Shown: positions 6,344 through 30,690, numbered from the stretch's first letter. The stretch is DNA of 40,660 bases from a bacterium (GCA_024275095.1 JAJRZV010000093.1:1-40660); one strand, 5' to 3'. Made by a program: numbers and translations. Notes: generated from the sequence alone by a model not told the origin.

Positions 6344-7729
6344 TTAGAAGAATGCGTTGAGTGAGACTTCCAGCATGTAAAGAGGTCGTGTGGAGTCAGG
6401 ATTGATGGTATTCACAAAGGCTGCTGCCACACCACCGGGGACGAAGAACGTGTTAACCACGTCCACTACCAGATGTGGTGAGAGTTGATAGCGAAGTGCC
6501 CCGTCTATTTCCACTCCGGTAAACCACTTTCCACGAGCATTATTGTTGTTAAGTGCCATGCCCGCTCCGGCAATTCCCATGAGCAGAAGACGTGGACGCG
6601 GATAATAGTAAATGCCTGCATCGGCCAGCAAAAATCCTGTTCTGGAGCGGAAGAATGCTCCCACGCGCTGACTTGTACGTTCATCCAGATTGTCTCCCCT
6701 GTCTCGCAGTTCATCTTCCGTGAATACGAGAGTGCGACTGAGTGAGCGGCCGGAATAGAGAAAGGCGTAATTTTCGCCGCTGCGCTCGTGCGTATCATCC
6801 GGGCTGAGCACCAGCAGGCTCATGCTCCAGCCGAAATTACCGCTTTCTTCTGCGCCTGCCAGCCCCGGAACAACACGGCCGTCCACGTATTTACCCCATG
6901 CCGTGCGTGCTGCTCCGTACATGTAGTATATCTGGAGGGCCCCGGCGGTATGCCTCTCGTCGCTTCCGTCCCAGGCCCCCCTGTTGGTCCAGCCGACCTG
7001 CAACGCCAAGTCTGCACCAAAAGTCGAAAATTCTTGAGACCGTGTTATGTGAACCACGGGTGTGAAAAGCCATGTGTGCCTGATGATGACTTCTGCGTCG
7101 TACAGCCCGTACAAGCCGGCCTGTATGGTCCATCCTTTTACTCCGGAGAAAGTAGTGGAAACGCCCCAGGGAAAAATGTCGTGTCGAAAATTGTTGAAAT
7201 CGAGGTTCGCGCTTTCGTAGTTTTGGTCAGGCAGTTGGCCTGCAAAAAATTCGATAGGCCTTTCAGAAAGATTTATGCGCACACGTACAGCACCCAGCCA
7301 GTGGTTGAGGAAGAGGCCTGTGGGATCTGCCACGTACTGGTATCCTGCTCTGATCCACAGGTATTCGTCTGCTTTGACTTCTGCGTATATCTGGCGGTGT
7401 TTGAGGACAAGGCCTTTTTCAGAGTATGAAAACGCTTCTGCTGTGTTCCTGCTCCAGATGTTGAGTCCCAGTTCAGCTTCCCAGTAAACGCGCAGGTCTT
7501 CTCCCACCAGAAGTGAGAACTTGGGATTAAAGAATGTCCCCGCATATCCCACGCTCTGACCAGCAGGTTTGTAGTAAGGCCTCGAGGAGTCAAAGTCACT
7601 GTCGGTTTTGTAAATTATCAGGTTCTGGAGGTAACCACATAGACGGGCCTTTACCTCTGCTCCGCGAGCATCCGAAAGAAAGAAAAATACGATGGCAAAA
7701 ATTGCGGATATGTAACGAACCTTCTTCAT
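6344..7729 (-). CDS. Outer-membrane beta-barrel protein, unknown function
   Basis: Sec signal peptide (MKKVRYISAIFAIVFFFLSDARG), alternating aromatic/polar strands, C-terminal Phe (..EVSLNAFF); ATGA-coupled to the GH5 gene. Confidence 0.7.
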   Translation of the reverse strand: MKKVRYISAIFAIVFFFLSDARGAEVKARLCGYLQNLIIYKTDSDFDSSRPYYKPAGQSVGYAGTFFNPKFSLLVGEDLRVYWEAELGLNIWSRNTAEAFSYSEKGLVLKHRQIYAEVKADEYLWIRAGYQYVADPTGLFLNHWLGAVRVRINLSERPIEFFAGQLPDQNYESANLDFNNFRHDIFPWGVSTTFSGVKGWTIQAGLYGLYDAEVIIRHTWLFTPVVHITRSQEFSTFGADLALQVGWTNRGAWDGSDERHTAGALQIYYMYGAARTAWGKYVDGRVVPGLAGAEESGNFGWSMSLLVLSPDDTHERSGENYAFLYSGRSLSRTLVFTEDELRDRGDNLDERTSQRVGAFFRSRTGFLLADAGIYYYPRPRLLLMGIAGAGMALNNNNARGKWFTGVEIDGALRYQLSPHLVVDVVNTFFVPGGVAAAFVNTINPDSTRPLYMLEVSLNAFF

Positions 7730-10068
7730 CTTGGATATGCCGGTGATACTCCGTTGACGACAGTATTTTCTTTGAAAAAGTACTGCCAGCCCGTATTTTC
7801 GTTGCCGGGGAGAGGCGGAAGTATGCGGATGGAGTGAATGTAGCCGGGATCATCGGCTGTTGGATACCAGTAGAGAAAACCATAGGCAAAAGCTGAACCT
7901 TCACGTGGCTCATGATGCCTATACACTGCATAACCATCAGATATCCACACGTAAAATCCGTCAGGATAATATAAACCGTAGGGAATGTATATGACCGTGG
8001 GTGCATCTGTCTCACGGCTTTCAAATTTCAGTTCAAATTCGCCCTCCGGGTTGACAATACCCTTCTCAGGGTCGAAGTAATGCAGCTTGGAGTAAAAGTG
8101 CATGGATACGGGTTTGCCGCTGAGAAACGTGGGGTGCGGCCGGCTGTAGGCTTCTTCTCCACGCGGGGTGAGGTTCCAGTCCACCACGGAAAAGTCTTCA
8201 TTATTCCAGCCTTCGCCACGGTCAGGATCGTTTTCCATTGACCAGCACCACTGCATGTGGCTGAGGAACATGTCCTCGAATACCTCGTAGTAATTATCGA
8301 GTATTTCCTCGGATACGGGACAGCGCTCGTCGCCGTCGCAGGGTTCACTGTTGAAGTTGAAATACGTGCCGAACTCTCCAAGTACAACGGGGACGTTACC
8401 CAGTGAATGTGTCGCACGCGCAATGGCGCTTTCAATCCCCGGGCGGTAATCCCGGAATTTCACCTCTTCCGGGGTAAACTCCCGCGGTGGCATGTTGAAG
8501 CCGGGGAAAGGGTAAATATCCGCATACCAGTGAGGTGCGTATACCACCTGCGGCAGGCCGTCAGGTTTTGTCATGTTGAGCTGGAATGGACTTTCGCCGC
8601 CTGCACCGAAGAATGAAAGCACTGTCTCCAGGCCCAGCGTGGGCTCTATCCATATCACGGCATCGGGGTCTTCGGCGAGTATGGCCTTGCCAATCTTTTC
8701 ATAGAAGGGTTGCAAATAGAGCTTGTCAAAGCCGTAGTTGATTCCCATGATACCCATGAGGTCCGCGTGTTCAAAACCCCATTTCCGCCGGGTTTCTTCG
8801 CTGGTATCAGGGGGCAGAAGACCAAGTCCTATTACAATATCCACTATATCGGAGGCAAGGGTGGGATAATCAGGTGTGTCAAGAAAGGTTCCGAGAAAAT
8901 TTTTCAGGGCGTCGATACTACCTATTTCGAAAAACGCAGCAGCAATGGTGAGCGTGAGGAAAAACCCCACTGGTTCGTTGATAATGTCGTAACCGATAAC
9001 ATTGGGATATTTCCCAACGCGTGCAGCCACAGCGGCCCACGCACGTGCGTAGGCGTCCTGAAGAAAGTCCTGGATATTCTTTTCTTCACCGTTGTCATTA
9101 ACAGTGAGGGTGGGATAGGCATCGTTACCTGCAAAAAACGCGGCGAAGCAGCGCTGTATGTCCAGTGAAAATATGGCGTTAATTCCCCAGGTTGTCCAGG
9201 GAAGAAGATCCGTCGTTTCTGTAATGTCATATGGATAGTGCCCTTCCGGAATAAAAGGTACGATGATGTTTTTAATTTGCTCGGCGATATCCCCGGCTGT
9301 GTACCCACCCGGGAAACCCATATCCTCACCCACGAGCTTACCGATTACCCGAGTTACCGTTTCCAGGAACTGAGGGTCTGTCAGGTTCCCCAGAATGCGA
9401 GGAAATCCCCACACGGGTGAGTCCAGATCCTTCTCCGGCATGATGGCCTTCACCGCCCATCTCGGAGCCCCATCTCCTCGAACGATATTGCTGTAGGGAG
9501 GAATAAAGGCCGTGAACATGGAAACAGGACTGCCGGGTGGAAAAAGAGCTGAAAGGACATCGGTTAGAATGTCGTTGTAATAAACCATCAAGTGCCTGCT
9601 GAAAATGTCCTGGTGCATGTCCATGAGCACGTAAATGCCGTACTCATTGGCCTTGCTGACGATTCTTTCAATAAAGTCTAAATACTCGGTATCAAGCTGA
9701 TGGGGATCGTCCGGCTGGATGGCTTCCCAGTTCATGATGAGCCGAATGGAATTGAAACCGAGCGAGCGAATTTGCTCGAAGTGCTTATCCGCTTCCTCGA
9801 TAGGGAATGGTTTGCCCACGTATGATGGCTGTAGCACCTTGTCGTAGGTGCACTGCCTTTTACTCGTGGTACACGGGTCATCGTTCACAGGAAACTTGTC
9901 GCTGCCGCTGACGTTGAGGCCGTGAAAATATACGTACCTCCCGTGCCCGTCCTTGATGTAATTGAGATATGTGTGCACTGGAGGAAGGTTGTTCGTTTCA
10001 AATTCTGGAGTGGATGAGCAGGAGAAGAAAATACCCGCGCTCAGGAACACAACCAAAAAATTACGCAT
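7726..10068 (-). CDS. Glycoside hydrolase family 5 lipoprotein, endoglycoceramidase-related (EGCrP/steryl-beta-glucosidase-like)
   Basis: Lipobox MRNFLVVFLSAGIFFSC; VGKPFPIEEADKHF, RLIMNWEAI, DMHQDIFSR, GDGAP, acid/base GYDIINEP, APHWY, nucleophile VLGEFG, GEGWNNEDFS. Confidence 0.85.
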   Translation of the reverse strand: MRNFLVVFLSAGIFFSCSSTPEFETNNLPPVHTYLNYIKDGHGRYVYFHGLNVSGSDKFPVNDDPCTTSKRQCTYDKVLQPSYVGKPFPIEEADKHFEQIRSLGFNSIRLIMNWEAIQPDDPHQLDTEYLDFIERIVSKANEYGIYVLMDMHQDIFSRHLMVYYNDILTDVLSALFPPGSPVSMFTAFIPPYSNIVRGDGAPRWAVKAIMPEKDLDSPVWGFPRILGNLTDPQFLETVTRVIGKLVGEDMGFPGGYTAGDIAEQIKNIIVPFIPEGHYPYDITETTDLLPWTTWGINAIFSLDIQRCFAAFFAGNDAYPTLTVNDNGEEKNIQDFLQDAYARAWAAVAARVGKYPNVIGYDIINEPVGFFLTLTIAAAFFEIGSIDALKNFLGTFLDTPDYPTLASDIVDIVIGLGLLPPDTSEETRRKWGFEHADLMGIMGINYGFDKLYLQPFYEKIGKAILAEDPDAVIWIEPTLGLETVLSFFGAGGESPFQLNMTKPDGLPQVVYAPHWYADIYPFPGFNMPPREFTPEEVKFRDYRPGIESAIARATHSLGNVPVVLGEFGTYFNFNSEPCDGDERCPVSEEILDNYYEVFEDMFLSHMQWCWSMENDPDRGEGWNNEDFSVVDWNLTPRGEEAYSRPHPTFLSGKPVSMHFYSKLHYFDPEKGIVNPEGEFELKFESRETDAPTVIYIPYGLYYPDGFYVWISDGYAVYRHHEPREGSAFAYGFLYWYPTADDPGYIHSIRILPPLPGNENTGWQYFFKENTVVNGVSPAYPR

Positions 10069-10074
10069 GAATGG

Positions 10075-10104
10075 AATGTAATATGAGACACAGGGGATGG
10101 TCAA
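10075..10104 (-). promoter_or_regulatory. Sigma70-type promoter for the GH5 gene, probably leaderless
   Basis: Minus strand TTGACC-N18-TACATT-N6-ATG; no Shine-Dalgarno. Confidence 0.5.
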
Positions 10105-10138
10105 GAACAAAAAGAACTCAAAGAACTCGAAAGAACTC
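10102..10138. repeat. Short tandem direct repeat AAAGAACTC x3 plus one degenerate copy
   Basis: Copies at 10111-10119, 10120-10128 and 10130-10138; degenerate CAAGAACAA at 10102-10110. Confidence 0.8.
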
Positions 10139-10366
10139 CCTTACTCGAGAAGGGCTTGTGCGTTGGCCCGGGAGAAAGGCGAAAAGTTAAAAATGTTTCG
10201 TGGATAGACATTTTGTATTTTCTATGCCCGGGCCAAAGCTCAATTTTCCTGATTTACTCAAAGCACTGCTACAGCAATATCTTCCTCAGCTACCTGCTAC
10301 CTGCCTGAAAGCTTCCGCTGACCCTCCACTTGTCAAGTTCTCCGCTTCAGGTGGAGCAATACATGA

Positions 10367-10880
10367 TCATTTTTCAAATACAAGGATATTAACAAACTCA
10401 GACGATGAACATTTATCCGTATGATCCACGCATACAGTACAACCTGCTGATAAACAAATCAAACGTTCTTTTGCACTCTCACGTATCAAAGCTGCTGTGC
10501 CCTCTATGCTACACCCAGCATCTCCCAACACAGGCTCCTCCTCAACAACCTCACCTCCCCTTATTTCCAGCTTCACCACATCATAACCACGCCGTGTATA
10601 AATCGCGTTCGTGGCTCTATCAAAAAAACTTCACCAAAATCAATCATTGCATCCTTAGAATTCCTCCCATACACCACCAGATACTGAACATGTGTATACC
10701 TTTGAAAATGAGCTAAACCATGAAGGTGGTTTTACGACCACATACAAAGCATCTCTCCCCGCCCCAACGATCATGTCTGCCTCAATCTAAAGCCGGTATC
10801 TCCTCCCCCTGACCAACCACTTTTAAAAACTCCAGCTCTCTCTTAAAACCATCCAGCACAGGAATATAAACACTATCCAT
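10367..10880 (-). pseudogene. Degenerate gene remnant of unknown family
   Basis: Protein-like segments in successive minus-strand frames (MDSVYIPVLDGFKRELEFLKVV / IEADMIVGAGRDALYVVV / AHFQRYTHVQYLVVYG / FDRATNAIYTRRGYDVVKLEIRGGEVVEEE); one junction falls in the A7 run at 10622-10628. Confidence 0.4.
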
Positions 10881-11287
10881 AAATTGTTTAAACGCAAAAC
10901 ATCTGTCAAGAACTTTTTTGTGAGTAAATTTTGCGGGCCTGCAAAAATTAATTGATATTCTATGATTTAACAATTAAACCTCGGCAACTCTTGAACTTTC
11001 AAAAGGATTTCCGCCAGGGCAAAGACGAATATCTGAAAAACAACAATTTTCAAGGCACCATCCCACGCGCCAGCGCCAGAGAAAACACCGCAACACTACG
11101 GGCGGGACATACGCACGGTAAGCGTGCAAAAAATCGTGGCCCTGATGTCAGACCAGCCACGGTCCTGAAACACGCGGGGTCCGAGAAAATGAAGATCCCG
11201 CGTGAGTAGGGGGATGTTTGCAAAAGGTTTATTGGAGCCAGGTGAAAGCACATTTCCCCCCGAATTTGTGATAGTATTTTGTGCGCC

Positions 11288-11629
11288 ATGGTCAAAAAAG
11301 TCGTTTTTTCAGAAGCGGAGCGCGTGCGCTGGCAGGTGGCTTTCGACGAGGGGAACTGGCTGCTGGGGATTTATCGCCCGGAGTTCGGCTCGCGGGAAGA
11401 GGTAAAAGAGCTGGAAAAACACGATGCTCCCGAGCTCTTTCTTCTGCTGGAAGGCCGGGTTGTGCTGCTTCTCCAGGAAGAGGAGGAAGAGGTGAAAGAG
11501 CTGGAACTTCGGGCGGGAGAGGCTGTGATTCTCGATTGCTGGCATAACGCTTACAGTCCGGACCGCAGCGGCCAGGCGCTGGTTGTGGAGCGCACAGGCG
11601 TGAGGACGGAGTTCAAACCTCTTGCATGA
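11288..11629 (+). CDS. Small cupin-fold protein
   Basis: LEKHDAPELFLLLEG..LRAGEAVILDCWHN resembles the two cupin motifs; overlaps the 3' end of lhgO convergently. Confidence 0.65.
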   Translation: MVKKVVFSEAERVRWQVAFDEGNWLLGIYRPEFGSREEVKELEKHDAPELFLLLEGRVVLLLQEEEEEVKELELRAGEAVILDCWHNAYSPDRSGQALVVERTGVRTEFKPLA

Positions 11630-12797
11630 GGTCTGCCACGTAACGCGCAAAGCTCATGGACGAAGTGAAAGCGGGGGAGACCGCGTTGAGCACGTGAACG
11701 CTTTTTTCCCCCTTCAGCACAATAAAGTCCATGATGAGTTTCTTTTCTTTCCAGTCCACGAGCTGGGCACGTATGCCCACCTTGCTGCTTTTCAGAAGGT
11801 CGCCGCGCTGAAGAGAAGGCACGAGCGCGCGTGCATCCCGGTAGAGACCTGACAGCAGGTACCTTCCCGCTTCCCTGGATGCCACGGCGCGAAAGGCGGG
11901 ATTACTGAGAAAGAGCAGAGCGTCCCTCCAGGCAATGGAAAGGAACTCGCCGTTCATCCCTTTCAACAGTCCGTAATTCTCCCGTCCCAGCGCAGGGGTG
12001 GCTGTAGGTCCTGCATACACGTTGCCATCTGCGGAAGGTGTGAAGTGCACTCCCAGGAAGGGGTTGACCAGGTCCGGCACGGGATAGATGTTGCCTCTTA
12101 CCAGGTGTTTTTTTTCGGGATGGAGTTTCCTGTAGAGACCCTTGAAGGGAATGAGGCGGTAGTTCAAGCCAATACCAAACGCGTGGGCGATGCGGTCGCT
12201 GTAGGCCCCCGCAGCATTGAGAAGGACGCTGTATTTTACAGTGCCCCGGGAGGTGAGCAATTCCCCGGAACGCATGGGTTTAAGAGCGCGCGTGTTGAAG
12301 AGAAACCGCACTTTGCCTGTATTTGAGAGTTCTTCTACCAGGGCCTTCAGCACTTTCCGGGGTTCAACCACTGCTGTTTCAGGAGAGTAAAGTGCTTTCT
12401 CAACGGTACGGGCATAAGGCTCCAGTTCGTGCAGTTCCTTTTCGTCAATGATTTTCACCTCTACCCCTGCGCTTTCCGCCCGGCTCTGGAGCTCGTAGAG
12501 CCTTTCCAGTTCTTCAGGAGTTTTCGTAACAATGACCTTGCCGCATTCCAGCAAAGGCAGGCCTTTTTCCCGGCAGTATGCCTTCATAAGGCGGTTGCCC
12601 TCAACGCAGAAACGGGCCTTGAACGAGTCAGGGGTGTAATAAATGCCTGCATGCAGCACGCCGCTGTTGCGGCCGCTGGCATGTGCGCCGACGGTATCCT
12701 CCTTCTCCAGGATGAGAATGTCGTCTGCACCCCTCCGGACCAGTTCCCGTGCCACTGTCAGCCCGACTATGCCTGCTCCGATGATTAAAGTGCTCAT
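11613..12797 (-). CDS. lhgO: L-2-hydroxyglutarate oxidase family FAD oxidoreductase
   Basis: IIGAGIVGL, HASGRNSGVLHAGIYY, IYPVPD..PFLGVHFT, GIRAQLVD, HVLNAVSPAFTSS; GGAG upstream of ATG 12797. Confidence 0.9.
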   Translation of the reverse strand: MSTLIIGAGIVGLTVARELVRRGADDILILEKEDTVGAHASGRNSGVLHAGIYYTPDSFKARFCVEGNRLMKAYCREKGLPLLECGKVIVTKTPEELERLYELQSRAESAGVEVKIIDEKELHELEPYARTVEKALYSPETAVVEPRKVLKALVEELSNTGKVRFLFNTRALKPMRSGELLTSRGTVKYSVLLNAAGAYSDRIAHAFGIGLNYRLIPFKGLYRKLHPEKKHLVRGNIYPVPDLVNPFLGVHFTPSADGNVYAGPTATPALGRENYGLLKGMNGEFLSIAWRDALLFLSNPAFRAVASREAGRYLLSGLYRDARALVPSLQRGDLLKSSKVGIRAQLVDWKEKKLIMDFIVLKGEKSVHVLNAVSPAFTSSMSFARYVADLMQEV

Positions 12798-12893
12798 GAC
12801 TGCCCTCCATGAACTGGGTTGAATTTTCAGAAGTTTTACTCTTGATGTAAAACCAAACCCGCATTGCCCGGGAGGAAATGATTGATTATTTAT

Positions 12894-12933
12894 GCTCAAA
12901 AAATTTGAGCCTTATTCATTCCTCCATTATAAT
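12894..12933 (+). promoter_or_regulatory. Promoter and overlapping palindromic operator of the SSS-galK operon
   Basis: TTGAGC(12905)-N17-TATAAT(12928)-N6-ATG(12940); perfect inverted repeat GCTCAAA-N3-TTTGAGC at 12894-12910. Confidence 0.65.
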
Positions 12934-12939
12934 CCTTCC

Positions 12940-14592
12940 ATGGCCGCCATTCATCTTACCCCGGTTGACTGGCTTATCGTTGTTCTCTATTTCGTATTTA
13001 TCATCGGGATTGGACTTTATCTCAAGAGATACACTGTCACAGGCGAGGACTTTTTCTTAGCAGGGCGTAGAAGCAGTGCCTGGGTGGCAGGCCTCGCGTT
13101 TCTCTCAGCCAACCTGGGCGCACTGGAAATACTGGGATGGACCGGTGCCACGTACAAGTATGGAATGTTTGTCGCACACTTTTACTGGATCGGTGCCATT
13201 CCGGCCATGCTCTTTTTGGGCCTTTACATGATGCCCTTTTACTACAGCAGTCGCATTCATTCCATTCCAGGATATCTGAAACTTCGATTTGACGAGAAAA
13301 CGCGGGTTCTCAACGCCATTTCCTTCGGTATCATGACGGTCCTCATGTCCGGCATCAATATGTACCTCATGGCCCTGGTGTTTCGTATTTTCTTGGGGTG
13401 GAACTGGGACGTGAGCATATGGGTGTCAGCACTGGCCGTTGGATGCTACGTGGCGCTGGGAGGTCTCACGTCTGCAATTTTTACCGAAATTGTACAGTTT
13501 TTCCTTATCTGGTTCGGACTTTTTCTCGTGACCATCCTCGGGCTGGTAGAAGTTAAAGGACACGTATTCCAGGGCCTTCCAGAGGCCATGACGTCTCTCT
13601 GGGCGGTGTCTGCACATGCTGCTGAGAATCCCATGGGCGTGACCTGGCTGGGGATTGTACTGGGATTGGGCTTTGTGCTTTCCTTCGGGTACTGGACCAC
13701 GGATTTCCTCGTGGTACAGAGGGCTTTTTCATCCAGGGATTTGAGAACGGCGCAGATGTGTCCTGTCATTGCTTCGTACTTCAAGATGGCCCTTCCGTTT
13801 ATCGTGGTGGGCGCAGGCCTCATCGCGTACAAGCTCGGCATGGCAGGCAAGCTTCACCTCATGCTGGACGAGTCAGGCAAACCCAATTACGATTCTGCCC
13901 TGCCCCTTCTCCTGGCCCGATATTATCCTCCAGGCCTGGTGGGCCTGGGAGTGACCGCGCTTCTTGCAGGATTCATGGCCGGACAGGCTGGAAACATCAG
14001 CGCATTCAATACAGTATGGACCTACGATATATACAAAGCGGTGATAAAAAGAGACGCTCCCGACGAACACCTGGTATGGATGGGGCGCGTGGTTACCATC
14101 ATCGGGATCATTCTCAGCGTTGGTGCCGCTTACTGGGCCAAGCAATTCCCTACCATCATGGATTACATCCAGGCCATATTTTCATGGGTAAACGCACCCC
14201 TGTTCGCCACCATGCTCCTTGGCATGTTCTGGAAGCGAACAACTTCTGATGGTGCTTTTTACGGGTTGCTGGTGGGTATGGTTGCCTCTTTCCTCATGTT
14301 TCTCGGCCTTCGCTTCGGGTGGCTGGACTCGTACTGGTTGACGTTTTCACACAATGCCAGCGACATGAGCAACAACCTGTGGAGGGCGTTCTGGGCCTGG
14401 CTGATATGTTTCGTGCTGACCATTGTTATCAGCCTTGTTACACAACCCAAGGAAGAGAAAGAGCTGGAAGGACTTGTCATGGGGCTGACGCCCATGCCGG
14501 AACATCGTTCCTATCCCCTGATTCAGCGCCCGTCATTCTGGGCAGCCGTGTCGTTTGTGGTGTTGATTGTGCTTAATATTTATTTCTGGTGA
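12940..14592 (+). CDS. Sodium:solute symporter (probable galactose/sugar transporter)
   Basis: DFFLAGR, FLSANLGALE, IPGYLKLRF, YWTTDFLVVQRA, AFNTVWTYDIY; many TM helices; upstream of galK. Confidence 0.9.
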   Translation: MAAIHLTPVDWLIVVLYFVFIIGIGLYLKRYTVTGEDFFLAGRRSSAWVAGLAFLSANLGALEILGWTGATYKYGMFVAHFYWIGAIPAMLFLGLYMMPFYYSSRIHSIPGYLKLRFDEKTRVLNAISFGIMTVLMSGINMYLMALVFRIFLGWNWDVSIWVSALAVGCYVALGGLTSAIFTEIVQFFLIWFGLFLVTILGLVEVKGHVFQGLPEAMTSLWAVSAHAAENPMGVTWLGIVLGLGFVLSFGYWTTDFLVVQRAFSSRDLRTAQMCPVIASYFKMALPFIVVGAGLIAYKLGMAGKLHLMLDESGKPNYDSALPLLLARYYPPGLVGLGVTALLAGFMAGQAGNISAFNTVWTYDIYKAVIKRDAPDEHLVWMGRVVTIIGIILSVGAAYWAKQFPTIMDYIQAIFSWVNAPLFATMLLGMFWKRTTSDGAFYGLLVGMVASFLMFLGLRFGWLDSYWLTFSHNASDMSNNLWRAFWAWLICFVLTIVISLVTQPKEEKELEGLVMGLTPMPEHRSYPLIQRPSFWAAVSFVVLIVLNIYFW

Positions 14593-14601
14593 GGTGTTCA
14601 G

Positions 14602-14814
14602 GTGGCTGAACGCATGGTAACCGTGTGGGAATGGGTGGGAGCGGTTCTCCTGACATACGGCGTGATTATTTTCCTTACAGGTTTGTACCTGCTCTATCGG
14701 CCGCATACTTCTACAGAGCTTCATCATCTCTATCCCAACCTGTGGTGGGGCGGTGTGATGATCATGGCCGGATTGATTTTTCTCGTGTTCCCCAGAAGGG
14801 CCGGCAGTGATTGA
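14602..14814 (+). CDS. Small two-TM membrane protein associated with the SSS transporter
   Basis: GTG start after GAGGTG; two hydrophobic helices flanking HLYPNLWWG; overlaps the galK start. Confidence 0.7.
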   Translation: MAERMVTVWEWVGAVLLTYGVIIFLTGLYLLYRPHTSTELHHLYPNLWWGGVMIMAGLIFLVFPRRAGSD

Positions 14815-15982
14815 AAACGAATACCTGAGCTTTCTCAAACACGAGCTCAACAATGTGTTCGGGTATTCACGTGAAAGGGTATGTTTTTCATTTGCCCCCG
14901 GAAGGGTGAACCTTATCGGTGAACATACCGATTACCACGAGGGCTTTGTTTTTCCTGTGGCCGTAAACCTCAGGACCTTTGTGGCGGGACGTTTACGCAG
15001 GGATGACCTGGTGTGTGCCTGCAGCGTAAACAATCGCCAGAAGATTGAGTTTCGACTATCTGAACTCGCCCCTCCGGGTCAGAGTCTATGGTGGACGTAC
15101 GCACTGGGTCCCATCTACGTTTTACGCGAGGAGAAAATCCACCTGGACGGAATGGAATTTGTCATTTACGGCGAAGTGCCTCAGGGCGGTGGACTCAGCT
15201 CATCTGCAGCGCTGGAAGTGGCCGTGCTCCTTTTTGTTAACTCCTTGTTTAACCTCAGCCTTCCCCCAGATAAAGTTGCTTACCTGGCGCGCCGTGCAGA
15301 AAATGAGTTCGCAGGAGTGCCCTGTGGCATCATGGACCAGTGGGCAGCGGTGTTCGGAAGAGAAGGCCACGCCCTGTTCATTGATTGTCGCGGTATGGAA
15401 ACAGAGTTTGTGCCGGTTCCCGGAAGATGGTCAATAGTCGTCTGTGACTCAGGCGTGAGACACAGCCTCGCTTCATCCGAATATGCGAAACGCCAGGAAG
15501 AATGTCGTGAATGTTTGCTGGCGGTTCGGCGAAAACATCCACATGTGAAGGCACTCCTAGATGTAACAGAAGAAATGCTGGAGGAAGTCAGGGGGGAAAT
15601 CAGCGAGGTGGCTTACAGGCGTTGCTCTTACGTGCTGGAGGAAAATCGCCGTGTACTGGAAGCGAAAGAGGCACTGCGCACGGGTAACAGGGAGAAGGTG
15701 CGAGAGCTTTTTGGGGGGTCGCATGAAGGGCTGCGTTATAAGTATGAGGTTTCGTGCAGCGAACTGGACGTGCTGGTGGAGATTGCCGGGAGCATTCCTG
15801 GAGTGGTCGGTGCACGCATGACAGGTGGGGGTTTTGGAGGGAATACCGTGAACCTGGTGGAAAAGGGAATGGAGGAGGAGTTTGGGCGTATTATTTGTCA
15901 GGAATATAAAAAACACACAGGAAAAGAGGTAAAGGTGAGAGTGCTCGAGGCGGGGGAAGGAGGAAGGGCGTGGCAGGAGTGA
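14807..15982 (+). CDS. galK: Galactokinase
   Basis: APGRVNLIGEHTDY, PQGGGLSSSAALE, CGIMDQ, GARMTGGGFGG. Confidence 0.95.
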   Translation: MIENEYLSFLKHELNNVFGYSRERVCFSFAPGRVNLIGEHTDYHEGFVFPVAVNLRTFVAGRLRRDDLVCACSVNNRQKIEFRLSELAPPGQSLWWTYALGPIYVLREEKIHLDGMEFVIYGEVPQGGGLSSSAALEVAVLLFVNSLFNLSLPPDKVAYLARRAENEFAGVPCGIMDQWAAVFGREGHALFIDCRGMETEFVPVPGRWSIVVCDSGVRHSLASSEYAKRQEECRECLLAVRRKHPHVKALLDVTEEMLEEVRGEISEVAYRRCSYVLEENRRVLEAKEALRTGNREKVRELFGGSHEGLRYKYEVSCSELDVLVEIAGSIPGVVGARMTGGGFGGNTVNLVEKGMEEEFGRIICQEYKKHTGKEVKVRVLEAGEGGRAWQE

Positions 15983-17778
15983 CAAGAGAAGAAATTTTTT
16001 CTCGCTGTACCAGCTTGAAGGAATTTGTAGATACACATCCGGATGCATTGCAGCTTTTCAATGCGCTCCTTGAAAGGGAAATGGGGGGTACATTTGTTAA
16101 GTACCTGAAAGATGCGAACGGAGAGGTGCTGAAGACTTTTTTCTCTGAAATCGCCCGAGCTGACCTGGAACGACTGAGCCTGCATCGCAAAGTGCTTCTG
16201 GAACATCTGAGCGGCAAAGAGGAGAGGAAGCTGAGCCTTGAGGACGTTGAGCCTGTTGTCCAGGAAGGACCTTCAAGGGGCAATGAAAGTAGCGGAAAAG
16301 CATCATTGCAGAAAGGCGAATGGGCCTGCGCTGTGCTTGCCGGTGGCTCGGGCACGCGGTTTTTCGCTGCACTGTCCGATGATTCACCTTACAAAAAGGT
16401 GAAAGCAAAAGGTCTTTTCCCCATTACTCCCGTGGCCGAACATTCTTTCCTTGAACTGTTTTGTGGAGAACTGCTTGAGAATGCAATTTCATCCGGTGTT
16501 TTCCCTCCCTGGGTAGTAATGGTAAGCAGAGTTACACATCACGACGTTGAGGACTTCATTGCTCAGGAGCCATGGGGATTACCCCGCGATTGTGTGTTGC
16601 TCATCCATCAGGCAGAACATCCCCGGCTTGACCATGAAGGTGATCCTGTCGCGGATGAGGAAGGGTATCTTATATGGAGCGGGGACGGGCACGGTGGATT
16701 GTACCTTGCAATGCTGAAGAAAGGTGATGGCGGGTTTTCTTCTCTCGAGCGTCTTAAAAACTGGGGCGTTAGATACCTGGTCCTTCACAACGTGGATAAT
16801 GCCCTTGCGCGGCCACTGGATCCTGCAAGGCTTGGTTTTCACGTGGATGGGAACTACATGCTCACGTTTTCATGTACGGGCAGGCGTGATGTTTCTGAAA
16901 AAATGGGGGTGGTGGTTTACCTGAAAAGCAAGGGTCGCTACGAGGTGATGGAGTACAGTGTTGCGGAACCGGAAATTTACGAAGCACGAAGGAATGGTTC
17001 AAAGGAACTTCTTTTCAATGCTGGTCATATCAACACCAATCTGGTTTCTCTGGATGCAGTTTCCCCCCGTCTGGAACCCACTTTGTACACGGGGAAACCG
17101 GTGAAAATAAGAGATCAAATAGTGCAGACGAGCACTCTCGAGTACCTCAATCAGCATCTGTCAAGGCTTCTGCCCCCTGAAAAAGTGGGGGTTTACTGGG
17201 TGGAGCGCACGGAGTTTTTCTCACCGACCAAATCACTGACAGGTGAAGATTCTGCTGAAACCACAAAAAAACTGCTGTCCGATTATTTCCGCAGACGACT
17301 GGAGGCATGCGGGGCCAGGGTTGCTGCTGATGCCGTTGTTGAAGTCACGCCCTGCATGGGATTTAGCCAGGAAAGGTTGAGGAGTTCCGGTGCAGGTAAG
17401 AACTGGACCGTTGCAGAAAAGGCCAGGCTTTACTTAGGAGCGCTCTTTGGACCGGGAGGAAGACAACCTTATGGCCCTGATCTGAAAGTGGGAAAGAATG
17501 CTTCTTTGGTCATAAAGGTCAACAGGCCCTTTGGAGAAATAAGGGTGAATCCTGAAACCCGGCGTGTAGAACATGATCCTGAAGAAGCAGGGAGAATTTT
17601 AATGGGTAAGGGTGTCGAAATTGGCGAAGGTGTGGAGGTTGTAGTGGAACTGGAAGGAAATGCTGTGGTGAGAATACCCGATGGGGAAAAATTTAACAGG
17701 AATATACATGTGCGTGTAGGTGAAGGCGAAAGCGTTGTCCTTACATCTCAGGGACCACGTCACTGTAATCCTGAGTAA
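15970..17778 (+). CDS. UDPGP-family UTP:sugar-1-phosphate uridylyltransferase (UAP1/USP-like)
   Basis: LAGGSGTR, KGLFPI, GDGHGG, HNVDNAL, EKMGV, VMEYS, FNAGHIN, FSPTK; C-terminal beta-rich extension. Confidence 0.8.
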   Translation: MAGVTREEIFSRCTSLKEFVDTHPDALQLFNALLEREMGGTFVKYLKDANGEVLKTFFSEIARADLERLSLHRKVLLEHLSGKEERKLSLEDVEPVVQEGPSRGNESSGKASLQKGEWACAVLAGGSGTRFFAALSDDSPYKKVKAKGLFPITPVAEHSFLELFCGELLENAISSGVFPPWVVMVSRVTHHDVEDFIAQEPWGLPRDCVLLIHQAEHPRLDHEGDPVADEEGYLIWSGDGHGGLYLAMLKKGDGGFSSLERLKNWGVRYLVLHNVDNALARPLDPARLGFHVDGNYMLTFSCTGRRDVSEKMGVVVYLKSKGRYEVMEYSVAEPEIYEARRNGSKELLFNAGHINTNLVSLDAVSPRLEPTLYTGKPVKIRDQIVQTSTLEYLNQHLSRLLPPEKVGVYWVERTEFFSPTKSLTGEDSAETTKKLLSDYFRRRLEACGARVAADAVVEVTPCMGFSQERLRSSGAGKNWTVAEKARLYLGALFGPGGRQPYGPDLKVGKNASLVIKVNRPFGEIRVNPETRRVEHDPEEAGRILMGKGVEIGEGVEVVVELEGNAVVRIPDGEKFNRNIHVRVGEGESVVLTSQGPRHCNPE

Positions 17779-17878
17779 TAACTGTTCTGCTGTTTCACAG
17801 GAGTGTAATCTCACCCGCTTGTGTTCTCCTCTTCGATGGGGATGGGTCCTTTGTGGGAGGTGTGCGTGAAACCAAACG

Positions 17879-18868
17879 CTATTGAGAAGACTCCTTGCGC
17901 TCCCATTCCCATGCTGTTTTCACAATGAATTCCAGGTCATCGTAACGTGGTTTCCATCCAAGGGTTTGCTTGATACGCGCAGGGTCTGCAATAAGCACGG
18001 GAGGGTCGCCCGGCCGCCTGGGTCCGATGTTTACCGGGAAATCAACACCGGTGACTTTTTTCACCACGTCCACAACTTCCCGCACTGAATAACCACGACC
18101 GTAGCCACAGTTGAATACAGCACTGTCTGCTCCTGATAGAAGATATTCTGCCGCGAGCACATGTGCTTCAGCCAGGTCAAGCACGTGTATATAGTCACGA
18201 ATACACGTGCCGTCGGGTGTGGGATAGTCGTCCCCGTATATGGTGAAAGATGGGAGTTCCCCCTTCGCTGTTTTGAGTAGCAGTGGGATGAGATGAGTTT
18301 CGGGTCGGTGGCGTTCTCCCAGGCGGGCATCGATGCTTGCCCCCGAGGCGTTGAAATACCGCAGAGACACAAACCGAATGGCACCTGCGTTGCTCAGGTC
18401 CTGAAGCACTGTTTCCACAGCTGCCTTGGATCGGCCGTAGGGATTGGCAGGCCGAAAAGGCGCGCCCTCCGGGATGGGTACGGTGTCGGTGAGCCCGTAC
18501 ACAGCCGCAGAGGATGAAAAGATAAAGAGTTCCACTCCGGCCTCCTGCATTGCTTGAAGGAGCATGATCGTTTTACTCAGGTTGTTGAGGTAATATTTCA
18601 TGGGATTTCGTACGGATTCTTCCGCCTGTATGAATGCGGCAAAGTGGATGACTATGCGGGGCCTGAAGCTGGAGAGGGTCTCTTTCATGGCGGACAGGTT
18701 GCCGATGTCCACCTTTTTCAATTCCCCGTACGTGATGAATTCCCGGTAGCCTGACGAGAGGTTGTCAACAACCAGGATGTCCGCTCCCTTTTCTCCAAGG
18801 AGACGCAGTGTGTGGCTGCCGATGTAGCCGGCACCGCCTGTTACGAGTATTCTTGTATTCTTCAACAT
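17879..18868 (-). CDS. galE: UDP-glucose 4-epimerase
   Basis: VTGGAGYIGSH, FSSSAAVYG, PYGRSK, LRYFNASG, PDGTCIRDYIHVLDLA. Confidence 0.95.
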   Translation of the reverse strand: MLKNTRILVTGGAGYIGSHTLRLLGEKGADILVVDNLSSGYREFITYGELKKVDIGNLSAMKETLSSFRPRIVIHFAAFIQAEESVRNPMKYYLNNLSKTIMLLQAMQEAGVELFIFSSSAAVYGLTDTVPIPEGAPFRPANPYGRSKAAVETVLQDLSNAGAIRFVSLRYFNASGASIDARLGERHRPETHLIPLLLKTAKGELPSFTIYGDDYPTPDGTCIRDYIHVLDLAEAHVLAAEYLLSGADSAVFNCGYGRGYSVREVVDVVKKVTGVDFPVNIGPRRPGDPPVLIADPARIKQTLGWKPRYDDLEFIVKTAWEWERKESSQ

Positions 18869-19072
18869 CTCCAGCTCCTTTTAAAAGGGCATTTTAACTG
18901 GAAGGGGATTTGCTCACAAAGCATAAACAGGTTTCTTGGCAGTGATTACAAGGATTATTTTTTGAGCAGCGTCGTAATCCCGTAGAGACATGATGGTCTG
19001 GTCACAGGTGCAGAATACGCAAAGGGTAATGGCTAAATTTTCCCTTGACGAGGCATGCGGTGTGAGGATTTA

Positions 19073-19098
19073 ATAATGAATGATAGTTCATTCATTAT
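19073..19098. promoter_or_regulatory. FadR-type (TetR) operator
   Basis: Perfect 11-bp inverted repeat ATAATGAATGA-TAGT-TCATTCATTAT just upstream of the TetR gene. Confidence 0.8.
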
Positions 19099-19121
19099 AT
19101 ATAATAAGGAAGAGGTGAAAT

Positions 19122-19727
19122 ATGGCACGACACGTTGACAGAGACGCAAAGAAACGGCGGATACTTGATGCTGCTGCAAGGGTATTCGCCAGGAAAGGGT
19201 TTTATAACACACGGATATCAGAAATTGCCGAGGCTGCAGGTGTTGCTGACGGCACCATTTACATTTATTTCGAAGGCAAGGATGAACTTCTTATCAACAT
19301 TTTCGAGGAGCAGATGGAGTTCATTATCAAACGGTTCCGTGAAAAACTCGCAACCACCCATGATCCTGAAGAACGCATGAAAGTGTTCGTGGAGGAGCAT
19401 TTTAAACTTGCAGAAGAGTTTCCTGATCACGCAGGTGTTATTACCATCGAACTCAGGCAATCCAACAAATTCATGAAAGAGTACAGAAACGAGAAGTTCA
19501 AGGAATATTTGAGCCTTATTGAAGACATTATTGAATACGGCAAGCTGCGCGGGCGTATCCCGAAGGACCTCAACACTGTTTTTACTGCCAGGGCGGTTTT
19601 CGGGCTTCTGGATGAATTGACGCTTATGTGGTCCCTGGCGAAATCAAGACCTTCAATTGATGAGCTTGTCAGTTCTGCATGGGGGTTGATATCCCGGGGG
19701 CTTTTCGGCCATGAAGAGGCTTCCTGA
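19122..19727 (+). CDS. TetR family regulator, Bacillus FadR (YsiA)-like
   Basis: ILDAAARVFARKGF..IAEAAGVADGTIYIYFEGKDELLI; IELRQSN motif; upstream of etfBA. Confidence 0.88.
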   Translation: MARHVDRDAKKRRILDAAARVFARKGFYNTRISEIAEAAGVADGTIYIYFEGKDELLINIFEEQMEFIIKRFREKLATTHDPEERMKVFVEEHFKLAEEFPDHAGVITIELRQSNKFMKEYRNEKFKEYLSLIEDIIEYGKLRGRIPKDLNTVFTARAVFGLLDELTLMWSLAKSRPSIDELVSSAWGLISRGLFGHEEAS

Positions 19728-19817
19728 GCCCATGGCGCACCGTGTCAAAAAACCTTGACGGTAGCATGGCCTGCTGATTAACCTTTAAACCCGAAAAACA
19801 TACTAAGGAGGAGGGTG

Positions 19818-20573
19818 ATGAAGATACTGGTGACCGTGAAGCGCGTTCCTGACCCCGATATGAAGGTCAGGGTCAACGCGGAAGGCACGGGGATCGTGGA
19901 GGACAACATGAAGTTTGTCATCAACCCCTTTGATGAAATTGCCGTGGAAGAGGGGTTGAGGATCAAGGAGAAAAAAGGCGAAGGGGAGGTCGTGATAGTG
20001 GCGATTGGTCCATCGGTGGTTCAGGAGCAGATTCGTGCTGCTCTTGCCATGGGGGCTGACAGAGGAATTCACGTGGATGTGGACTCGTATCCGGATCCTC
20101 TAAACACAGCAAAGTTGCTCAAAGCTGTTGCAGAGAAAGAAGCTCCCAACATCGTGATCATGGGCAAGCAGGCTGTGGACGATGACTACGGTCAGGCGGG
20201 ACAAATGCTCGCTGCCATGCTCGGATGGGCTCAGGCGACATTTGCATATAAGGTGGAAATTGCCGATGACAATTCCAAAGCCACTGTCACAAGGGAGGTT
20301 GATGGTGGACTGGAGACCATAGAGATTGATCTCCCCGCTGTGGTCACTGCTGATTTGCGCCTCAACGAACCCCGTTATGCAAGCCTTCCCGGAATTATGA
20401 AGGCGAAGACAAAGCCCATGGACGTATTCAAACCAGCAGATCTGGGAGTGGAACTCAGTCCGGTGCTTGAGCTGGTTCGCATGGAAGAGCCGCCTCCGCG
20501 TAAAGGTGGCATCATTGTCGAGACGGTGGATGAACTCCTTGACAAGCTGCGCAACGAAGCCAAGGTCATTTGA
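19818..20573 (+). CDS. etfB: Electron transfer flavoprotein beta subunit
   Basis: KILVTVKRVPD, INPFDEIAVEE, ALAMGAD, GKQAVDDD, LNEPRYASLPGIMKAK; SD AAGGAGG. Confidence 0.96.
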   Translation: MKILVTVKRVPDPDMKVRVNAEGTGIVEDNMKFVINPFDEIAVEEGLRIKEKKGEGEVVIVAIGPSVVQEQIRAALAMGADRGIHVDVDSYPDPLNTAKLLKAVAEKEAPNIVIMGKQAVDDDYGQAGQMLAAMLGWAQATFAYKVEIADDNSKATVTREVDGGLETIEIDLPAVVTADLRLNEPRYASLPGIMKAKTKPMDVFKPADLGVELSPVLELVRMEEPPPRKGGIIVETVDELLDKLRNEAKVI

Positions 20574-20584
20574 GGAGGGATGTC

Positions 20585-21568
20585 ATGAATGTGCTGATTG
20601 TGGCAGAAGTGTTTAAAGGAGCGGTGAGAAAGGCGTCTTTTTCAGCCATCACCGCAGGTAAGGAACTGGCAGAAAAGTCCGGAGGCTCTTTTTCCATTCT
20701 CATAATGGGCAAAGGCATTGAAGGCCCCGCAGGAGAACTTGGAAAGTTCGGTGCTGCCTCTGTTCTTGTGGCGGACAGTGATGCTCTGGAGCACTATCTC
20801 GCGGAACCCTATGCACAGGTTGTGGCGAAGGTGGTTCAGGATAAGGGGTTTGATGCGGTGCTTGCAGCAGCAAATACCTTCGGAAAAGACCTCCTCCCAC
20901 GGGTGGCCGCCAAGTTAAACGCAGGGATGATCAGCGATATTACCGAGGTCGTTGAAGCCGGTGATGAGCCGGTGTTTCGACGGCCCATGTACGCGGGAAG
21001 CGTTAATGCCACGGTTAAAGTGAAAACAAAACCTTTTGTTGCCTCTGTGCGGGGTACAGCATTTGCCAAGGCGGAACCGGGAGATGGAGACTCTCCCAAG
21101 GAAAGCGTGACCGTGGAAATCGACGGATCGCTCGCGGGTAAGCAGAGATTTGTGAAGTTCGATGAAGCTGTATCCGAGCGTCCGGAACTCACGGAAGCTG
21201 AAATTGTTGTTTCGGGCGGTCGCGGGGTTAAAAGCAAAGAGAACTTCAAACTCATCGAAGATCTGGCAGACGTGCTCGGTGCTGCTGTGGGTGCCTCACG
21301 TGCGGCAGTGGATTCCGGTTTTTGTCCCAATGACTGGCAGGTGGGTCAAACGGGTAAAATCGTGGCCCCAAATCTGTATTTTGCCATCGGTATTTCTGGT
21401 GCCATTCAGCATGTGGCAGGCATGAAAGACTCCAAGGTCATTGTTGCCATTAATAAAGATGAAGAGGCCCCCATCTTCCAGATCGCCGACTACGGCATAG
21501 TCGCAGACCTGTTCAAGGTGGTACCAGAGTTAATAGAGAAACTGAAGAAACTGAAAGCAGAAGGCTGA
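20585..21568 (+). CDS. etfA: Electron transfer flavoprotein alpha subunit
   Basis: [46 protein letters not shown]. Confidence 0.96.
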
Positions 21569-22964: not shown

Positions 22965-24275
22965 TTATTCAATGATCTCTCCAAAACATTCAATGGCTTT
23001 TTTGAGTTCTGGATGTTCTCGGGCGGCCTGATGAAGAGGCACTCCTTCAAGCACCGCCTGCCAGGCGATTCGCATGCTGCGCGCGCCGATTGCAGGACCG
23101 TCAGGATGCCCGAATACTCCACCACCCGCCAGGTGGAGAAAGTCTACATGACCGAACATACGGTAATTAACAGGAACTTTACCGGCCCACTGTCCCCCGG
23201 AACTGACAGGAAGTGTCTTTTCCAGACCGTGAAAAGTACCGGTGCAGGCCAGAGCATTGGCCAGAACTTCGTCGTCGCTTTCGTAAAGTTTTCCCTGAAT
23301 CGCTCCCACGTGACACTGGTCTGCCCCGGCAATTCGAAAGAGCTTGGTGATTACAGGAAAGGACAGCCCTATGTAAGGACTGCGTGCCCACATGGGTGCA
23401 AAATCGCGGTGGCAGTGGATTGGCACCTCCGTGTGCTCCGCCAGCAGCTGAAGCACGGGTATTCCAGCAGTTGCCGCATTGAGCATTACACAGTTGCCGC
23501 CGTTTTTCACCACGATGTCGTGGAGTTTAAGCACCCTGTCAGGTTTGTCAGTGATATTAAAGGCGTACATTTTCTTTTCACCTGTTTCATCTTCTGCTTT
23601 TTTCATAACGGCAACCAGTTTTTTTACCCGTTCTTCCACTGTGGAATAAGGGGCATCGGCAATGAGTTCGTCATCTTTGAGGAAGTCGAGTCCACCGCGG
23701 AAACCTTCATAGGCCAGCTCTGCAAGCTCATCCACGGATAATCCTACATTGGGTTTTACAATGGCTCCAACAAGCGGTCTTCCTTCTACATTCAAAATCT
23801 TTCGCGTACCGGTTATTCCAAACTTCGGCCCCTGGAAACCCTTTACAAAAGATGCGGGAAAGTCAAGGTCAAGGAGTTTGACAGCATAAAATGCCCCCAT
23901 CTCATACAGGTTGCCGGCGACTGTGGAGAGAAGCATGGCTATGTTGTGGCCGAAGTTTTTCCATGGAAATGCGAGTCTGATGATGCCTGCATTTATAGGC
24001 CCCTCTCCGCTGAATTCCTGCATGGCGGTGGCCGATGGCAGACGAGGGTTCTCCGGCGAGTACGGTAAAGTGAGAACGGAAAGAATTTTTGCACCATGCC
24101 GTTCTCTTAAATCAGAGGTTTCCTTTCCCACTCGTTTCCAGGTGCCCGTGGATTGTTCCGCGGCAAATGCTTCTGCTGCCTGAAACAGGTTGAGAGGGGT
24201 TTCCAGATAGTAAGTGGCAATGACATGATGTTCAACGTCTATGCTTTCCCACAGTCGTGCAAAAGAATCTTTCAT
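22965..24275 (-). CDS. RuBisCO-like protein (form IV, resembling the non-photosynthetic/OiaX group)
   Basis: AEQSTGT, TVAGNLYE, GPKFGI, KPNVGL, DFLKDDE, HCHR, QGKLYE, GGGVFGHPDG; ATGA-coupled to folK. Confidence 0.9.
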   Translation of the reverse strand: MKDSFARLWESIDVEHHVIATYYLETPLNLFQAAEAFAAEQSTGTWKRVGKETSDLRERHGAKILSVLTLPYSPENPRLPSATAMQEFSGEGPINAGIIRLAFPWKNFGHNIAMLLSTVAGNLYEMGAFYAVKLLDLDFPASFVKGFQGPKFGITGTRKILNVEGRPLVGAIVKPNVGLSVDELAELAYEGFRGGLDFLKDDELIADAPYSTVEERVKKLVAVMKKAEDETGEKKMYAFNITDKPDRVLKLHDIVVKNGGNCVMLNAATAGIPVLQLLAEHTEVPIHCHRDFAPMWARSPYIGLSFPVITKLFRIAGADQCHVGAIQGKLYESDDEVLANALACTGTFHGLEKTLPVSSGGQWAGKVPVNYRMFGHVDFLHLAGGGVFGHPDGPAIGARSMRIAWQAVLEGVPLHQAAREHPELKKAIECFGEIIE

Positions 24276-30653: not shown

Positions 30654-30690
30654 AAATATGAAGGTTGAACAAATCCAGGAGGTGCAAAAA

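Follow-up and report, generated by a model that had tools for sequence, protein, structure and literature searches.

Related systems and comparison with the locus

In plants and Leishmania, UDP-sugar pyrophosphorylase (USP, EC 2.7.7.64) acts after galactokinase and converts galactose-1-phosphate (Gal-1-P) and UTP to UDP-galactose (UDP-Gal) without GalT, as outlined in PMC9306886 and PMC4722067. A 40,660-nucleotide (nt) stretch of bacterial DNA (GCA_024275095.1 JAJRZV010000093.1:1-40660; the whole of it is called the window below) was analyzed with a focus on positions 12940..18868, where a galactokinase gene, galK, overlaps the gene for a 602-amino acid (aa) nucleotidyltransferase of the UDPGP family. 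We think it fairly probable that this enzyme is a UTP:hexose-1-phosphate uridylyltransferase that accepts Gal-1-P, and probably glucose-1-phosphate (Glc-1-P), and that it bypasses GalT.

Like USP, the enzyme would make UDP-Gal directly; its length is similar, and its alignment with L. major USP reaches the C-terminal extension. It differs from the USPs in being part of a bacterial operon, and its sequence similarity to them is weak (profile E 8e-8 to 5e-5). BLUSP of Bifidobacterium longum has been described as a promiscuous UDPGP-family enzyme that makes UDP-Gal, UDP-glucose (UDP-Glc) and other UDP-sugars in vitro. It is likened to the present enzyme by description only, as a bacterial UDPGP-family enzyme; it is reportedly shorter, at about 500 aa, and bifidobacteria keep GalT. 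One review places USPases in "a few bacterial species" (PMC6329318). Bacterial USPs are thus already known as promiscuous catalysts; no description of a galK-coupled bacterial operon lacking GalT, or of this long clade, was found in the open-access literature searched.

With the classical Leloir pathway (GalK, GalT, GalE, GalM) the locus shares GalK, GalE and a galactose-type transporter, but GalT and GalM were not found here, and uridylyl transfer is proposed to be replaced by a pyrophosphorylase that uses UTP and releases pyrophosphate (PPi). Synthesis of UDP-Glc is probably a function in common with bacterial GalU (NTP_transferase fold), which is missing from the genomes that carry the enzyme, but the two belong to unrelated sequence families and the UDPGP enzyme is twice as long. 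Like UAP1/AGX1, the enzyme has an N-terminal helical domain and a catalytic core, and of the six sugar-phosphate contacts it retains four, namely Gly, Glu, Tyr and Lys. Unlike UAP1/AGX1, it has His at positions 241 and 353, Ser or Ala in place of the Gln of the GGQGTR loop, polar or small residues at the equivalents of F381/F383, a beta-rich extension of ~110 residues, a bacterial host, coupling to galK, and GlmU encoded in the same genome.

The galactokinase operon and the genome that carries it

The window is carried by contig C59 of a 2.45 Mb assembly in 136 contigs (completeness 97.02%, contamination 0.94%). The genes of the focus region are as follows.

12892-14592, plus strand: SSS-family Na+/solute symporter, SGLT type (PF00474, 171 bits; TIGR00813, 230 bits, cut-off 184)
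14602-14814, plus strand: 70-aa protein with two hydrophobic helices (from the translation)
14807-15982, plus strand: galactokinase, galK (TIGR00131, 292.4 bits, cut-off 226.65; PF10509, PF00288, PF08544)
15970-17778, plus strand: 602-aa UDPGP-family nucleotidyltransferase (PF01704, 69.8 bits, cut-off 22, residues 144-365)
17879-18868, minus strand: UDP-glucose 4-epimerase, galE (TIGR01179, 439.5 bits, cut-off 262.3)

The four plus-strand genes form an operon convergent with galE. The small open reading frame (ORF) overlaps galK by 8 nt, and galK overlaps the UDPGP gene by 13 nt, with a AAGGAGGA-like (Shine-Dalgarno-like) site preceding the latter. The original prediction, made from the DNA alone, had described an overlapping operon of symporter, small transmembrane protein, galK and 602-aa UDPGP enzyme that converges on galE; the ORFs were confirmed. 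The probable symporter start is an ATG at 12940, where that prediction had put it, and the motifs GGSGTR, GDGHGG, NVDN, VMEYS and FNAGHIN that it had named are all present in the UDPGP translation.

The window contains no galT, as had been noted, and this result was extended to the whole genome with hidden Markov models: at E ≤ 1 there was no match to PF01087, PF02744, TIGR00209 or TIGR01239, control genomes being positive, although absence from an assembly of 136 contigs is no proof. Searching the genome by tblastn with five GalT-like proteins from other genomes that carry the enzyme returned nothing but two small HIT proteins, 114 and 162 aa long. The genome has a single GalK signature and a single UDPGP (PF01704) match. 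For GalU, the best TIGR01099 match in the genome reached 82.7 bits against a cut-off of 326.8; this candidate was rejected as GalU and assigned to RmlA-long (TIGR01208, 484.6 bits). GlmU is encoded in the genome (499.8 bits), so a role in UDP-GlcNAc synthesis is not needed for the UDPGP enzyme. There are two phosphohexomutases.

Family and fold of the UDPGP enzyme

Placement of the enzyme relative to UAP1, UGP and USP was based on E-values, alignments and structure scores against solved chains. A single-sequence search against solved structures gave UAP1 at E 7e-21 to 6e-13, followed by UGP at 7e-4, and no USP at E ≤ 0.01. With a profile built from 21 family members, UAP1/AGX1 matched at E 3e-49 to 5e-34 over almost the entire chain, UGP at 1.6e-12 to 6e-6, and USP at 8e-8 (MbUSP) to 5e-5 (L. 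major USP, 4.7e-5). The AlphaFold2 model of the enzyme (pLDDT 93.5, pTM 0.91) superimposed on UAP1 structures with Z 36-40 and a root-mean-square deviation (rmsd) of 2.2-3.0 Å over 418-446 residues, the best match being 8yp3 (Z 39.7, rmsd 2.6 Å, 425 residues aligned; Foldseek E 3.7e-30). Scores were Z 28.4 for UGP, 28.3 for L. major USP (model range 21-561, reaching into the C-terminal extension) and 25.6 for truncated E. coli GlmU (residues 112-577).

The domain order of UAP1, an N-terminal helical domain, a central catalytic domain and a small C-terminal domain, was found in the model. The core is called UAP1-like because UAP1 leads in sequence, profile and model scores; to it the model adds a predicted C-terminal beta-rich extension of ~110 residues, of the kind carried by USP, UGP and GlmU. 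A protein-language-model search, used as a lead only, gave plant "UTP-monosaccharide-1-phosphate uridylyltransferase" (USP) clusters as the nearest (0.95-0.96). The expectation that the enzyme is of the UAP1/UGP/USP (UDPGP) type rather than a GalU or GlmU was borne out by PF01704 and by the profile and fold scores. As to its being a USP, membership of the UDPGP superfamily held, but sequence and fold are UAP1-like, and the alignment tests put it outside the plant/trypanosomatid USP clade.

A word-indexed search of 5.8 billion proteins yielded 36 relatives with 35-47% identity (one weak, at 30%), mostly 520-609 aa long and almost all without a protein name, and an exhaustive HMMER search of 1.84 billion representatives yielded 47 proteins at E ≤ 1e-30. 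Full-length members (~560-610 aa) scored down to ~216 bits in the HMMER search. A large group of 440-505-aa UDPGP proteins, the outgroup, started at ~131 bits; it includes a fungal UAP1 and a Planctomycetota protein that NCBI names UTP--glucose-1-phosphate uridylyltransferase. No NCBIfam model matched the 602-aa enzyme, and 25 outgroup proteins likewise received no name. By length and score, the enzyme is assigned to a small, rare bacterial clade of long (about 560-610 aa) UDPGP proteins. Outgroup UDPGP domains were also seen fused to phosphoglucomutase, D-Ala-D-Ala ligase, a phosphomannose-isomerase-like domain, LicD and a MerR DNA-binding domain (P0104, P0107, P0137, P0159 and P0174). Of 9 long outgroup proteins inspected for a fused phosphatase, none had one.

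Linkage of the family to galK

Among 40 comparison genomes, which are related to this one at the domain level only, one (G001) encodes a close homolog, with 45% identity. Loci were gathered from species genomes (12) and metagenomes (69). After sequences of at least 430 residues without X were selected, 76 of 83 remained and formed 51 clusters at 90% identity, of which 48 could be assessed for galK and 3 had too little upstream DNA. The tree was made from 50 representatives, L082 being omitted as a fragment.

The gene directly upstream of the UDPGP homolog is galK in 21 of the 48 assessable clusters, and in 5 of the 12 species-genome loci. Linkage is scattered over the tree and takes 10 changes to explain, of which well-supported branches require at least 8; the linked lineages include Myxococcota, Bdellovibrionota, Fermentibacterota and further metagenome-assembled genomes. 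The survey of neighborhoods suggested at the outset thus showed a conserved linkage that is spread over the tree. In G001, the nearest relative, where GalT gave no match, a block of symporter (79% identity), small protein (48%) and galK (50%) runs into a contig end, and the UDPGP gene lies on another contig. Symporter homologs with 67-71% identity lie upstream of galK in L008, L044, L045, L047, L056, L060, L072, L073 and L081, and homologs of the 70-aa protein (33-48% identity) lie between symporter and galK in L008, L044, L045, L047, L060 and G001.

Separately, locus L009 was seen to encode a 918-aa protein with a melibiase (alpha-galactosidase) domain at 10144-12900, two genes downstream of a His353 member that has no adjoining galK.

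Sugar-binding residues

The contacts of AfUAP1 with GlcNAc-1-P are given as Asn249, Gly316, Glu329, Tyr330, Asn355 and Lys437, and the hydrogen-bonding equivalents in CaUAP1 as Asn227, Gly294, Glu309, Tyr310, Asn335 and Lys421 (PMC8386105). Plant, human and fungal UAPs are described as having four of these residues in common, namely both Asn, the Gly and the Glu, with the Asn pair recognizing the hexosamine (PMC3888555). In the profile alignment the six positions correspond to H241, G313, E328, Y329, H353 and K421 of the present enzyme. Both hexosamine-recognizing Asn are therefore His.

All 50 family representatives have His at position 241; at position 353, 33 have His and 17 have Asn. His353 was found in 21 of 21 galK-adjacent representatives (galK is directly upstream in 21 of the 33 His353 clusters), and galK adjoins none of the 15 assessable Asn353 representatives, the other 2 of the 17 having no assessable upstream DNA; the association cannot reach significance because it comprises only three independent contrasts. 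Asn353 occurs at three separate places in the tree, namely a Myxococcota clade of 15, L066 and L028. Among the 93 nearest outgroup proteins, His is present at 241 in 78 and at 353 in 1, where Asn or Ser is usual, and the UAP1-like Asn/Asn state (241/353) occurs in 14. Because the outgroup shares His241 and hardly shares His353, the alignment indicates that bacterial UDPGP enzymes generally have H241 and that H353 is peculiar to the galK-linked part of the family. The same count weakened the proposal that H241 is a family-specific switch away from N-acetylhexosamine (HexNAc).

At the positions of AGX1 F381 and F383 the present enzyme has His and Ser, and both sites are variable among family members; F383 is described as the position that was enlarged to admit bigger N-acyl groups (PMC8501146). 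In the nucleotide loop, UAP1 has GGQGTR(L)G and the present enzyme GGSGTRFF. All 50 representatives retain the Gly, Thr and Arg. Where UAP1 has Gln, 37 of the 50 have Ala, 9 have Ser, 2 have Thr and 2 have Gln, as against Gln in 73 of the 93 outgroup proteins.

Galactokinase, symporter and epimerase

Against solved relatives, the kinase matched human GALK1 (E 2e-76), Pyrococcus GalK (1e-73) and Lactococcus GalK (2e-66), and GalNAc kinase at 6e-27 only. It carries the galactose-binding signature PF10509 (68.8 bits) and passes the galactokinase equivalog TIGR00131. The best solved relatives of the symporter were the Na+/galactose transporter vSGLT of Vibrio (2xq2, E 2e-49) and SGLT1 (1.5e-42), and it is proposed to be the galactose importer. 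The 70-aa protein matched no Pfam family and is a candidate small symporter subunit. The GalE has Leu where E. coli GalE has a bulky Tyr299, which we take to exclude N-acetylated substrates. The substrate had been predicted to be "Gal or GalNAc". Galactose is favored by these comparisons because the kinase is close to GALK1, the transporter resembles vSGLT and SGLT1, and GlmU already covers UDP-GlcNAc; the same evidence disfavors the GalNAc half of that claim.

Pattern across carrier genomes

The carrier set consisted of this genome (G000) and 13 others. All 9 carriers with His353 gave a GalK match, versus 1 of the 5 with Asn353. In four His353 carriers (G000, G001, G043 and G048), GalK is present and GalT gave no match whatever. 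GalT-like genes above the TIGR00209 cut-off occur in other carriers, as detailed below, and none of them was found next to galK. In G045, which has Asn353 and no GalK, a GalT-like match reached 98 bits. In G050 (L098) and G041 (L101) the GalT-like HIT gene lies directly beside a GH57 gene, and such a gene may belong to alpha-glucan metabolism. Some of the GalT-like genes may therefore serve other roles, given their positions away from galK, the GH57 neighbors and the case of G045.

Neighboring genes and transcription signals

Further features of the window that bear on the locus are listed below.

7726..10110, minus strand: GH5 glycosidase with a lipoprotein-type signal MRNFLVVFLSAGIFFSC, likely start near 10068 (PF00150, PF18564)
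6344..7729, minus strand: 461-aa secreted protein with a signal peptide and C-terminal ...NAFF (no Pfam family)
12905..12933, plus strand: sigma-70-like promoter match TTGAGC-17-TATAAT (10/12), ending 7 nt 5′ of the ATG at 12940
30658-33495: PPDK

The best solved relatives of the GH5 protein were fungal sterylglucosidases, 8exd (E 3e-24) and 7lpo, and endoglycoceramidase II, and it is proposed to be an extracytoplasmic sugar-releasing enzyme. The gene for the 461-aa protein lies downstream of it in the same operon, with a 4-nt overlap, and its product is possibly an outer-membrane beta-barrel. A GH5 homolog was found on the same strand directly upstream of symporter, galK and UDPGP genes in L044, L047 and L056. 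By tblastn, a homolog of the 461-aa protein lies between GH5 and the symporter in L044 (36%, 472 columns); in L008 the symporter is immediately preceded by the end of such a homolog. The larger block of GH5, the putative outer-membrane protein, symporter, small protein, galK and UDPGP thus recurs, wholly or in part, in L044, L047, L056 and L008.

The gene upstream of and divergent from the symporter encodes an L-2-hydroxyglutarate-oxidase-like flavoprotein with its real start near 12798, leaving a spacer of ~140 nt. The promoter match at 12905..12933 could yield a leaderless or near-leaderless transcript; only its position is suggestive, because the number of sigma-70-like matches in the region (5) equals that expected from shuffles (4.9). 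Terminator and promoter scans of the region were at chance level overall, and an Rfam scan of 9900-19300 gave no RNA family. Between the GH5 gene and a 116-aa ORF at 11279-11629, cupin-like by eye, a segment of ~1.2 kb (10111-11278) is free of Rfam matches and of ORFs longer than 103 aa, and includes a 17-nt inverted repeat at 10156-10243.

A PPi-linked route had been said to fit the presence of PPDK, and the genome agrees: besides PPDK in the window, a membrane H+-PPase is encoded (875.8 bits), and no family-I soluble pyrophosphatase was found in the genome. This apparently PPi-conserving background fits reversible use of the enzyme.

Proposed pathway and alternatives

GalK and GalE are present, GalT was not found and the galK neighborhood is conserved, which are the features of a GalT-independent (pyrophosphorylase, "Isselbacher-type") route. 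In the proposed route, the nearby GH5 lipoprotein would probably free galactose extracellularly, and the SGLT-type Na+ symporter and its small membrane partner would bring the sugar into the cell. GalK would convert it to Gal-1-P, from which, with UTP, the UDPGP enzyme would make UDP-Gal and PPi, and GalE would convert UDP-Gal to UDP-Glc. The UDP-Glc could enter glycan synthesis, or be split with PPi by the same UDPGP enzyme to Glc-1-P and UTP, and Glc-1-P would reach glycolysis through one of the two phosphohexomutases. As the genome is without GalU, the UDPGP enzyme is probably also the UDP-glucose pyrophosphorylase of the cell; it would probably combine a USP-like dual Gal-1-P/Glc-1-P function with a UAP1-like scaffold. 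We infer what the substrate is, which way the flux runs and what the GH5 protein, the outer-membrane protein and the small protein do. Tentatively, and with less confidence than for Gal-1-P use as such, we put forward a more specific version, in which a rare UAP1-derived clade turned into UDP-Gal/UDP-Glc pyrophosphorylases, the change from Asn to His at 353 being the Gal-1-P switch, and forms with GalK a self-contained GalT-free bypass, the equivalent in bacteria of the plant USP route, within a glycolipid-like galactose utilization locus (GH5 lipoprotein, outer-membrane channel, symporter and small subunit).

Several observations weigh against this interpretation. The closest characterized enzymes by sequence and fold are HexNAc-1-P-specific UAP1s, and one source labels a homolog "UDP-N-acetylglucosamine pyrophosphorylase". 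To our knowledge, no member of the clade has a known enzyme activity. The genome gave no match for a mutarotase (PF01263; GalM). In 27 of the 48 assessable clusters, including the four closest to the window protein, galK does not adjoin, and the neighbors at such loci are unrelated housekeeping genes. Over the three independent contrasts, His353 and galK were concordant in 2.4 on average and never opposite, with a median sign-test p of 0.5. Completeness is known for 1 of the 13 other carriers. Six of these 13 have a GalT-like gene above the TIGR00209 cut-off of 102.1 (104.9-128.2 bits), and three of the six are among the five genomes in which galK and the UDPGP gene adjoin. The prediction that the enzyme replaces GalT is therefore supported for this genome, with its galK linkage and no GalT found, but the enzyme is not everywhere in the family a simple stand-in. 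For GalU, 0 of the 14 carriers scored above the cut-off (G043 alone has a full-length match, at 264 bits) versus 11 of 39 non-carrier comparison genomes (18 of 39 with a full-length match), a set phylogenetically unrelated to the carriers.

The GalU counts also suit another explanation, in which the enzyme is a housekeeping UDP-glucose pyrophosphorylase only, a eukaryotic-type UGPase replacing GalU, and Gal-1-P is handled by, for example, a promiscuous RmlA-long or an unrecognized transferase. RmlA-long is indeed encoded in the genome, more than half of the family is unlinked to galK and lies among housekeeping genes, and the Planctomycetota outgroup protein bears a UTP--glucose-1-phosphate uridylyltransferase name. 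This explanation leaves GalK without a partner in a genome lacking GalT matches, however, and does not account for the translational coupling to galK, its recurrence in 21 clusters from several phyla, or the His353 common to all galK-linked members. We consider it unlikely as a complete account; it is compatible with Gal-1-P use if the enzyme is dual-specific.

Salvage of GalNAc or GlcNAc is less probable still. As with human GALK2 and AGX1, a kinase would supply HexNAc-1-P for conversion to UDP-HexNAc, and GalE would interconvert UDP-GalNAc and UDP-GlcNAc. UAP1/AGX1 are by far the closest solved relatives, and the Leu at the Tyr299 position of GalE would presumably admit such substrates, if the rule assumed above holds. 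The kinase is nevertheless of the GALK1/bacterial GalK type (2e-76 vs 6e-27) and passes the GalK equivalog, the F381/F383 equivalents of AGX1 are His and Ser and variable in the family, GlmU is present, and the transporter is of the glucose/galactose type. AGX1 is stated to use GalNAc-1-P (PMC3888555), but both of the Asn described as recognizing the hexosamine are His in the present enzyme (PMC3888555, PMC8386105). A pathway for another sugar with a GalK-like kinase (L-arabinose, galacturonate or glucuronate), in the manner of the USP-dependent salvage of plants, is very improbable with a kinase above the galactokinase equivalog cut-off (PF10509, 68.8 bits) and GalE next door, even though plant USP is described as taking many sugar-1-phosphates (PMC6329318) and the GH5 substrate is not fixed by its relatives.

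If the UDPGP enzyme does use Gal-1-P in place of GalT, galactose would be catabolized or salvaged without GalT in uncultured lineages of Myxococcota, Bdellovibrionota and Fermentibacterota and in this phylum-level orphan, and pathway-reconstruction tools that require GalT would wrongly score such organisms as galactose non-users. The plant/trypanosomatid solution would have arisen independently in bacteria on a UAP1-like scaffold, with the His/Asn at position 353 as a testable specificity residue, and the clade could supply one-enzyme catalysts for UDP-sugar synthesis. Basic biochemistry would be unchanged because the reaction and the enzyme superfamily are already known.

Other features of the window and the genome

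On the plus strand, a malic enzyme is split over two ORFs, 4769-5719, encoding the N-terminal domain and the first part of the NAD domain, and 5735-6235, encoding the remaining NAD domain; the split could reflect a frameshift, an in-frame stop codon or an error in assembly. At 19122-21568 (plus strand), a FadR-like TetR regulator (NF053878, 166 bits, below the cut-off of 200) is followed by the ETF beta and alpha subunits; the regulator gene, on the strand opposite to galE, starts ~250 nt past the galE 5′ end and seems unrelated to the galactose genes. A RuBisCO large-subunit-like gene at 22965-24275 (minus strand; PF00016, 242 bits) adjoins a transaldolase/FSA-family gene and a 204-aa ORF. 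Elsewhere in the genome, contig C94 encodes at 1599-2957 a 452-aa protein (NF041135, 275 bits, below the cut-off of 580) that resembles the bifunctional inositol-1-phosphate cytidylyltransferase/di-myo-inositol-phosphate-phosphate synthase. It may be a compatible-solute gene of the thermophile type, which hints at a thermophilic host.

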